Position numbers and translations under genes: made by a program
The notes under the pieces: model-generated
Told to the model about the DNA's origin: nothing
The model's input: the letters and a program-made list of their open reading frames with translations, nothing else
Databases searched by the model: none
Source of the DNA: Escherichia coli
GTDB lineage: Bacteria; Pseudomonadota; Gammaproteobacteria; Enterobacterales; Enterobacteriaceae
Assembly: GCF_048403405.1 (NCBI RefSeq)
Contig: NZ_CP183129.1
Length of the DNA: 64,000 nt
Strand: one strand, 5' to 3'
In this document: positions 48,806 through 51,573 of the stretch, piece by piece
Layout of the letters: every line of letters starts with the position of its first letter
Numbering within the stretch: position 1 is the first letter of the stretch

Positions 48806-48909
48806 TGATTTCTCGCGCGGGCAATCTTGCCCGCGCTTCTGCTCTCCCGGCGTAACCCGGATTTGCCGCTTATACTTGTGGCAAATGGACACGTTCAGGG
48901 AGGCATCAA

Positions 48910-49077
48910 GTGAAGAAACTCACCGATAAGCAAAAGTCCCGTCTCTGGGAGCTTCAGCGTAATCGTAATTTCCAGGCCAGTCGCCGTCTTGAAGGCGTCG
49001 AGATGCCTTTAGTCACTCTTACTGCCGCAGAGGCTTTAGCGCGCCTTGAAGAGCTGAGGAGGCACTATGAGCGATAA
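48910..49077 (+). CDS. yhfG: small protein YhfG, antitoxin-like partner of Fic
   Basis: 55-aa GTG-initiated ORF (manual read) overlapping fic start by 11 nt; contains SRRLEG, matching the SxxxEG inhibitory motif of class I Fic partners. Confidence 0.75.
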
Positions 49078-49669
49078 ATTCGGCGAAGGGCGCGATCCGT
49101 ATCTTTATCCTGGCCTTGATATCATGCGTAACCGGCTGAACATCCGCCAGCAGCAGCGGCTGGAACAGGCCGCTTACGAAATGACGGCGCTGCGTGCTGC
49201 GACCATTGAGCTTGGTCCGCTGGTGCGCGGTTTACCGCATTTGCGCACTATCCATCGCCAGCTGTATCAGGATATTTTCGACTGGGCGGGGCAATTGCGT
49301 GAAGTTGATATTTATCAGGGCGATACGCCGTTCTGCCACTTTGCCTATATCGAAAAAGAGGGCAATGCCCTGATGCAGGATCTGGAGGAAGAAGGTTATC
49401 TGGTTGGCCTGGAGAAAGAGAAGTTCGTCGAGCGGCTGGCACATTACTATTGTGAAATCAACGTGCTGCATCCCTTCCGTGTGGGAAGCGGACTGGCACA
49501 GCGGATCTTCTTCGAGCAACTGGCGATTCATGCGGGCTACCAACTGAGCTGGCAGGGTATCGAAAAAGAGGCCTGGAATCAGGCAAATCAGAGTGGGGCA
49601 ATGGGGGATCTCACCGCACTGCAGATGATATTTAGCAAAGTGGTAAGCGAAGCCGGGGAATCTGAGTAA
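49067..49669 (+). CDS. fic: Fic family protein
   Basis: 200-aa ORF; Fic motif region reads [12 protein letters not shown] (degenerate versus canonical HPFx[DE]GNGRxxR). Confidence 0.9.
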
Positions 49670-49700
49670 AATAGCGCGGTTCTTTCGTACCGGAGCCGCC

Positions 49701-50264
49701 ATGATCCTGCTTATAGATAACTACGATTCTTTTACCTGGAACCTCTACCAGTACTTTTGTGAACTGGGGGCGGATGTGCTGGTTAAGCGCAACGATGCGT
49801 TGACGCTGGCGGATATCGACGCCCTTAAACCACAAAAAATTGTCATCTCACCCGGACCCTGTACGCCAGATGAAGCCGGGATCTCGCTTGACGTTATTCG
49901 CCACTATGCCGGGCGCTTGCCGATTCTTGGCGTTTGCCTCGGTCATCAGGCAATGGCACAGGCATTTGGCGGCAAAGTTGTGCGCGCAGCAAAGGTCATG
50001 CACGGCAAAACCTCGCCGATTACACATAGCGGTGAGGGCGTATTTCGGGGGCTGGCAAATCCACTTACCGTGACACGCTACCATTCGCTGGTGGTGGAAC
50101 CTGACTCATTACCAGCGTGCTTTGAAGTGACGGCCTGGAGCGAAACCCGCGAGATTATGGGGATTCGCCATCGCCAGTGGGATCTGGAAGGTGTGCAGTT
50201 CCACCCGGAAAGTATTCTCAGCGAACAAGGACATCAACTGCTGGCTAATTTCCTGCATCGCTGA
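49701..50264 (+). CDS. pabA: aminodeoxychorismate synthase glutamine amidotransferase subunit
   Basis: 187-aa ORF, GATase class I (catalytic Cys in GVCLGHQ). Confidence 0.95.

Positions 50265-50334: not shown

Positions 50335-51573
<1,239 letters not shown>

Follow-up and report, generated by a model that had tools for sequence, protein, structure and literature searches.

The yhfG-fic pair of Escherichia coli is best read as a domesticated, non-toxic derivative of a class I FicTA module, which would be expressed under sigma-S, locked by YhfG and no longer able to AMPylate from ATP while probably still being an enzyme. We put the probability of this reading at roughly 80%. The copy studied here lies in a window of 64,000 nucleotides (contig NZ_CP183129.1), to which all coordinates below refer, and is an ordinary allele of the core E. 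coli yhfG-fic locus. Since 2016, the literature has covered the motif of Fic, its lock by YhfG, the structure, the synteny and the descent from canonical AMPylases. With motif, lock and structure already described (PMC5033356), the initial annotation was right to present the locus as noteworthy biology and not as novelty. Indeed, the window locus is already known and adds nothing beyond K-12 to the question of Fic function.

Layout, identity and expression signals of the locus

The gene order in the window is nirB, tsgA, ppiA, yhfG, fic, pabA, argD and yhfK. The following features were located, the reading frames and their overlap being given by the list of open reading frames and by the raw sequence.

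48815-48836, plus strand: GC-rich hairpin just 3' of the ppiA stop codon (RNA fold -20 kcal/mol, z = -4.2)
48863-48884, plus strand: fic promoter core, the 22-nt block TTGCCGCTTATACTTGTGGCAA, with the -10 hexamer TATACT at 48871-48876
48897-48903, plus strand: Shine-Dalgarno sequence AGGGAGG of yhfG, 6 nt 5' of the GTG, read from the sequence
48910-49077, plus strand: yhfG (ficA / EcFicA), GTG start, 55 aa
48979-48996, plus strand: SRRLEG, codons 24-29 of YhfG, the (S/T)xxxE(G/N) inhibition motif, whose Glu28 locks Fic Arg146
49056-49062, plus strand: Shine-Dalgarno sequence GAGGAGG of fic, within the 3' end of yhfG, read from the sequence
49067-49077, plus strand: overlap of yhfG and fic, 11 nt, ATGAGCGATAA
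49067-49669, plus strand: fic (ficT / EcFicT), ATG start, 200 aa, class I FIC-domain protein
49469-49504, plus strand: degenerate Fic signature motif, codons 135-146, the sole such motif in the protein
49670-49700, plus strand: spacer of 31 nt between fic and pabA, from the list of open reading frames and the terminator scan
49701-50264, plus strand: pabA, on the same strand as fic and directly 3' of the spacer

The length of 55 aa that had been reported for YhfG and its 11-nt overlap with fic were thus found in both sources. Since the Shine-Dalgarno sequence of fic lies inside yhfG and the two genes overlap by 11 nt, their translation would be coupled. The Shine-Dalgarno sequence AGGGAGG of yhfG is kept in nearly all species in the alignment of the upstream regions. 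Further downstream, the argD reading frame (50350-51573) encodes 407 aa in the window and is annotated at the same length in strain TUM14771; in K-12 it encodes 406 aa, and the nucleotide alignment with the window contains one gap.

The window region shows 100% nucleotide identity with six complete E. coli genomes, where the two genes are annotated as yhfG/fic or ficA/fic. Moreover, a copy of yhfG-fic is present in 5425 of the 5426 complete E. coli genomes and is almost always single and chromosomal. Over the 8.5 kb around the pair, identity with K-12 MG1655 is 98.3%, and the ppiA-yhfG intergenic region is the same at 104 of 104 nt. Each protein differs from its K-12 counterpart by a single residue, namely residue 118 of Fic (E in the window, A in MG1655) and residue 51 of YhfG (R in the window, S in K-12), E118 and R51 being the commoner states across species. 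Hence EcFicT/EcFicA of K-12 has the same locus, motif, overlap, promoter region and neighbours as the window pair, from which it differs in allelic polymorphisms at variable positions only. The view that the motif is the normal state of E. coli Fic was confirmed by the identical motif of MG1655 and by the near-universal presence of the locus. No more than 213 genomes reach 99% identity with the window region. The idea that the window carries an unusual allele was nevertheless rejected because of the 98.3% identity with K-12 and the single amino-acid differences.

The hairpin that follows ppiA is kept across genera despite changes in its sequence, and it is likely to be the ppiA terminator, parting ppiA from the yhfG-fic transcription unit. 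It was not called by a simple terminator scan because its tail is poor in T. Downstream of this hairpin, the block at 48863-48884 is the only part of the ppiA-yhfG intergenic region that is conserved across genera; its core GCTTATACT was found in 73 of the 80 species loci described below and the 22-nt pattern in 59, while the flanking intergenic DNA diverges. The fic promoter has been reported to be strictly sigma-38 dependent (PMC3089606, PMC3141248). When the -157 to +99 BanI-to-primer fragment of PMC3089606 is mapped onto the window, the +1 of fic would fall at about 48882, 28 nt upstream of the yhfG start codon. A consensus scan of the intergenic region found no sigma-70-like promoter before yhfG, which is consistent with a sigma-S promoter lacking a -35 element. 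The conserved block also contains an imperfect inverted repeat (TTGCC...GGCAA) that flanks TATACT. Its conservation may reflect promoter constraints, or could reflect an operator for a regulator.

On the other side of the pair, the consensus scan found no terminator-like site between fic and pabA, so that read-through from fic into pabA, and with it co-transcription of the genes, is likely. The function of Fic might be linked to this putatively co-transcribed gene and thereby to PABA and folate. Early work by Komano et al. in 1991 reportedly linked fic to PABA/folate; a literature search combining fic, pabA and folate yielded hardly anything relevant, FIC also standing for fractional inhibitory concentration. 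Rfam gave no match at gathering thresholds in the whole 64-kb window.

The degenerate Fic motif and its inhibitory partner

The family assignments of YhfG and Fic are unambiguous. Fic matches Pfam PF02661 (E=5.9e-14, 53.1 bits for a cut-off of 24) and the NCBIfam equivalog NF007672 (E=6.4e-130, 430.8 bits for a cut-off of 181), and YhfG matches Pfam PF10832 (E=1.6e-24) and the NCBIfam equivalog NF007573 (E=7.7e-38, far over the cut-off). Furthermore, Fic and YhfG are at least 98% identical to chains A and B of entries 5JFF and 5JFZ, the EcFicT/EcFicA co-crystals of Stanger, Harms, Dehio and Schirmer (PLoS One 2016; PMC5033356). Fic is identical at 197 of 200 residues to the Fic part of 5JFZ chain A and at 196 of 200 to that of 5JFF (E about 1e-133), and YhfG at 54 of 55 residues to 5JFF chain B. 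H27, A118 and in addition G2 are found in the crystallised constructs; residue 27 is R in both MG1655 and the window, and residue 118 is E in the window. The deposited 5JFF/5JFZ sequence therefore differs from MG1655 at residue 27 (H27 as against R27). Natural variation at these two sites (R27/H27, E/D/A118) is common across species.

YhfG corresponds to the small, separate upstream protein of a class I module, and its SRRLEG at residues 24-29 follows the pattern (S/T)xxxE(G/N). Together with the near identity to 5JFF chain B, this motif bears out the initial annotation, in which YhfG had been described as a class I inhibitory partner. In the crystal structure, Glu28 of YhfG is salt-bridged to Arg146 (R2) of Fic, and EcFicA embraces EcFicT as VbhA embraces VbhT (PMC5033356). 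The complex with its inhibitory Glu-R2 salt bridge extends to the window pair by the match to 5JFF/5JFZ. When the 80 species loci and the window were compared, with a truncated Escherichia albertii copy (L005) set aside, Ser24 was found in 80 of 80 YhfG sequences, Glu28 in 79 and Gly29 in 74.

In Fic, the FIC fold is indicated by a catalytic His placed in an HPF...G.G loop and by the solved near-identical chain 5JFZ_A. The catalytic His135 and the second Arg (R2, Arg146) are present, and the Pro, the Phe, Arg138 and both glycines of the motif are retained as well. Three positions depart from the canonical form: Val139 is found where the acidic Mg2+-coordinating residue is expected, Ser141 at the central Asn of GNG, and Leu143 at the first Arg (R1), the ligand of the ATP beta-phosphate. 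An alignment with characterised Fic proteins had been proposed as a check. With HMMER, the motif aligns column by column with HPFREGNGRAQR of Fic-1 (8WT0) and HPFREGNGRTLR of VbhT, the degenerate motif standing opposite two canonical ones, and V139, S141 and L143 stand opposite the E, N and R of both proteins. The earlier statement that the acidic residue and the GNGR are missing therefore needs refinement: acidic residue, Asn and Arg are indeed replaced by Val, Ser and Leu, but both glycines of GNGR are kept. A canonical motif elsewhere in the protein had been named as an argument against this description. Regular-expression searches of the whole Fic protein found no match to H.F.[DE]GNGR..R, no GNG and one H.F only. 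Gly55, the site of the classical fic-1 mutation G55R, is wild type in the window.

The expectation that such a motif would abolish or change AMPylation agrees with the published biochemistry. Indeed, neither auto- nor target-adenylylation by EcFicT was demonstrable, even after mutation of the inhibition motif, and ATP was argued to be probably not bound, given L143 at the R1 position and a hydrophobic residue at the acidic one (PMC5033356). According to the same study, close homologues of EcFicT occur in Enterobacteriaceae only and are syntenic between ppiA and pabA, from which vertical inheritance of the clade was argued. The clade is described there as derived from canonical AMPylases and as having gained a conserved groove (A36, T40, Y67, F71, V139) for a substrate still to be found, its members being probably enzymes. 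The fic knockout is reported to be viable like the wild type (PMC5033356), hence any function of Fic would be conditional. The filamentation phenotype of fic-1 (G55R) is still without explanation (PMC5033356), and the mechanism is termed elusive in a paper of 2026 as well. Window Fic carries the residues of the EcFicT-like subgroup 3 of Stanger et al. 2016 (A36, T40, Y67, F71, V139 and L143), a pattern common to most of the 81 aligned sequences, and shares the subgroup's position between ppiA and pabA. A review table of 2020 groups E. coli FicT with the gyrase/Topo IV adenylylators (PMC7758455), which conflicts with the statement of the primary authors that no adenylylation was found (PMC5033356). 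The RefSeq gene name still reads 'putative adenosine monophosphate-protein transferase'.

The closest canonical relative with a solved structure is Fic-1 of Pseudomonas bijieensis 2P24 (8WT0). It likewise belongs to class I, has about 200 aa and is preceded by a small inhibitor, AntF, as in the window. Window Fic aligns with Fic-1 over residues 1-196 (E=1.2e-48), and the two proteins share the numbering of H135, R146 and the inhibitor E28. [quoted passage not shown] The inhibitor Glu28 and Fic Arg146 and His135 are all found in the window pair. However, the motif of Fic-1 is canonical whereas window Fic has V139, S141 and L143, and the negative cleft is replaced by Q29, A36 and V139. VbhT/VbhA of Bartonella schoenbuchensis (3SHG, 3ZC7, 3ZCB) shares the FIC fold and the Glu-R2 mode of inhibition with the window pair. 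Unlike window Fic, VbhT actively AMPylates gyrase and Topo IV; its motif is canonical, it bears a BID secretion domain at its C terminus, and it is carried by a mobile element whereas fic occupies a fixed chromosomal site. The Doc kinase and the phosphocholine transferase AnkX provide precedent for motif changes that retune the FIC fold to another donor, although their motifs and substrates are unlike those of E. coli Fic.

Conservation across the Enterobacteriaceae

The species survey took one genome per species and yielded 80 loci, all from Enterobacteriaceae, or 81 sequences with the window included. The gene ppiA lies upstream in 80 of 80 loci, the distance from fic to the pabA start is about 30-36 nt in about 70, the 11-nt overlap of yhfG and fic is found in 78, and Fic has 200 aa in 73. 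Hence the mobility and patchy distribution of type II toxin-antitoxin modules are not seen here, the position between ppiA and pabA being fixed across the 80 loci.

Within the motif, H135, the Pro, the Phe, R138, G140, G142, Q145 and R146 are invariant in the 81 sequences. Position 139 is I, L or V in 77 of them and D in one (Edaphovirga), and position 141 is divided between N (41), S (39) and T (1). At position 143, L, I, M or V is found in 73 sequences and R in 8; the absence of the first Arg from 73 of 81 sequences again supports the reading of the degenerate motif as the normal state. The residue at 143 covaries perfectly with two others, since all eight sequences with R143 have E36 and F67 and all 73 without it have A, S, M or T at 36 and Y67. 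The acidic residue is gone in 7 of the 8 sequences that still carry R143, which suggests that its loss preceded that of R1.

Nei-Gojobori estimates of dN/dS, for the window against nine taxa and with the overlapped codons of fic and yhfG left out, were 0.02-0.11 for fic, 0.04-0.13 for yhfG and 0.03-0.11 for pabA. Thus fic and yhfG are similar in this respect to their housekeeping neighbour. Given the conservation of the motif, the covariation and the low dN/dS across species, the degenerate motif is a selected state and not the product of decay.

A natural yhfG knockout is found in E. albertii. In the type strain NBRC 107761 (L005, 2344-2511), yhfG is cut short by a stop at codon 13, so that the inhibitory motif is not reached, and fic is intact, with 200 aa and the same motif as window Fic. 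The same loss of yhfG with fic kept has been described for E. albertii TW07627 (PMC5033356). It follows that un-inhibited Fic is tolerated in this species, which argues against a toxin activity.

Some loci differ in their surroundings. Enterobacter sp. kpr-6 (L026, 3143-3929) has an insertion of about 800 bp between fic and pabA, and a similar spacing is seen in L034. The insertion holds two minus-strand reading frames of 159 aa and 117 aa, with an Xre-like helix-turn-helix sequence in the latter; it looks like a mobile two-gene cassette beside the domesticated pair, and this cassette is possibly a type II toxin-antitoxin pair. In Dryocola boscaweniae (L064, 3608-4777), a reading frame of 389 aa with a signal-peptide-like N-terminus lies 3' of fic instead of pabA, which was not found downstream of fic at this locus; this species belongs to the minority with Arg at position 143. 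Finally, E. coli SCPM-O-B-8794 (L002) shows a synonymous divergence from the window of 0.26-0.36 for ppiA, fic and pabA, as large as that of E. whittamii, while K-12 is 98.3% identical to the window. This strain is probably a divergent Escherichia lineage and not a typical E. coli.

Possible functions of the YhfG-Fic pair

In the mechanism that we favour, yhfG-fic (ecficA-ecficT), a chromosomal, vertically inherited module of the Enterobacteriaceae, would be a toxin-antitoxin pair that has been domesticated. It stands behind the sigma-S-dependent fic promoter, at its fixed site between ppiA and pabA. YhfG binds Fic and places Glu28 of SRRLEG against Arg146, as in the crystals of near-identical proteins. 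In Fic, the fold and the catalytic His135 are retained, as are Arg146, the structural Phe and the two glycines of the anion-binding loop, while the hydrophobic Val139 and Leu143 stand in place of the Mg2+-binding acid and of the Arg for the ATP beta-phosphate, with compensating changes at Ala36 and Tyr67. Such a protein would no longer AMPylate gyrase or Topo IV from ATP and would be non-toxic, and Fic and its lock would be held together under strong purifying selection. Most likely, it would act in stationary phase as an enzyme that is gated by YhfG and moves a phosphate-containing group onto a target hydroxyl, from a donor that may be less charged or more hydrophobic than ATP. The weakest part of this domesticated-FicTA view is that Fic would still be an enzyme, a suggestion drawn from a catalytic His, an anion nest and a lock that are all conserved. 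Moreover, the E. albertii nonsense allele counts against the view, the lock being dispensable in at least one lineage.

It is conceivable, although we consider it unlikely, that Fic is instead a catalytically dead scaffold, that is, a binding or regulatory protein to which YhfG would be a structural partner. Binding is how some Bartonella Bep FIC domains act whose motifs are non-canonical. Such a role would agree with the loss of two phosphate- or metal-binding residues from Fic and with the loss of yhfG in E. albertii while fic stays, as well as with the failure to demonstrate auto- or target-adenylylation and the fic knockout without a growth phenotype (PMC5033356). However, residues that would serve only catalysis or its control (His135, Gly140, Gly142 and Arg146 of Fic, Ser24 and Glu28 of YhfG) are invariant or nearly so over 80 species, the clade-specific conserved groove (A36, T40, Y67, F71, V139) adjoins the active-site loop, and the structure authors themselves favour probable enzymes (PMC5033356). 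A dedicated eraser has also to be weighed, namely a deAMPylase that has lost the forward reaction and strips AMP from GyrB or ParE modified by a foreign FicT. The activity of Fic-1 (8WT0), the nearest canonical solved relative, which deAMPylates GyrB with AntF, points in this direction, and Glu28 and Ser24 of YhfG and Arg146 and His135 of Fic are all conserved. In the acidic cleft, by contrast, E29, E36 and E139 of Fic-1 correspond to Q29, A36 and V139 of window Fic, and among the aligned sequences Ala predominates at position 29 and occupies position 36 in 68 of 81, and position 139 is hydrophobic in 77 of 81. We regard this activity as quite improbable, since only one of the four acidic residues of the cleft is left; furthermore, Fic-1-AntF needs a divalent metal, whose usual acidic ligand is missing from window Fic, and E. 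albertii does without YhfG.

The reading that finds least room in these data is that of a conventional, active type II FicTA addiction module, in which Fic would AMPylate gyrase and Topo IV once YhfG is degraded. The architecture is typical of such modules: a small gene overlaps the one downstream, and its product carries an inhibitory motif and binds the partner tightly. The review table that places E. coli FicT among gyrase/Topo IV adenylylators (PMC7758455) also speaks for this reading. We nonetheless hold it to be extremely improbable, given three canonical motif positions that are not occupied as required, R1 included, the reported lack of adenylylation, even in a mutant of the inhibition motif (PMC5033356), a fixed and vertically inherited place in 80 species that is unlike that of mobile toxin-antitoxin modules, and a natural E. 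albertii yhfG nonsense mutant with an intact fic.

Returning to the domesticated, YhfG-locked derivative, a more specific proposal can be offered, to which we give tentative credence and somewhat less than even odds. The EcFicT-like clade would be made of active enzymes that carry out a new chemistry on the FIC fold, with a non-ATP donor held in the groove, gating by Glu28 and a sigma-S-dependent use in stationary phase. The donor groove, clade-specific and hydrophobic, may in this case be formed by A36, T40, Y67, F71, V139 and L143. In a narrower variant, YhfG-Fic may be a dedicated de-modifying enzyme.

E. coli Fic is the namesake of the FIC family, and the question of its own biochemical activity is more than 40 years old. 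The chief indication of a role other than AMPylation comes from the degenerate motif. The value of the present analysis lies in a correct annotation of the locus and in a warning against labelling Fic as an 'adenosine monophosphate-protein transferase' or as an active toxin.
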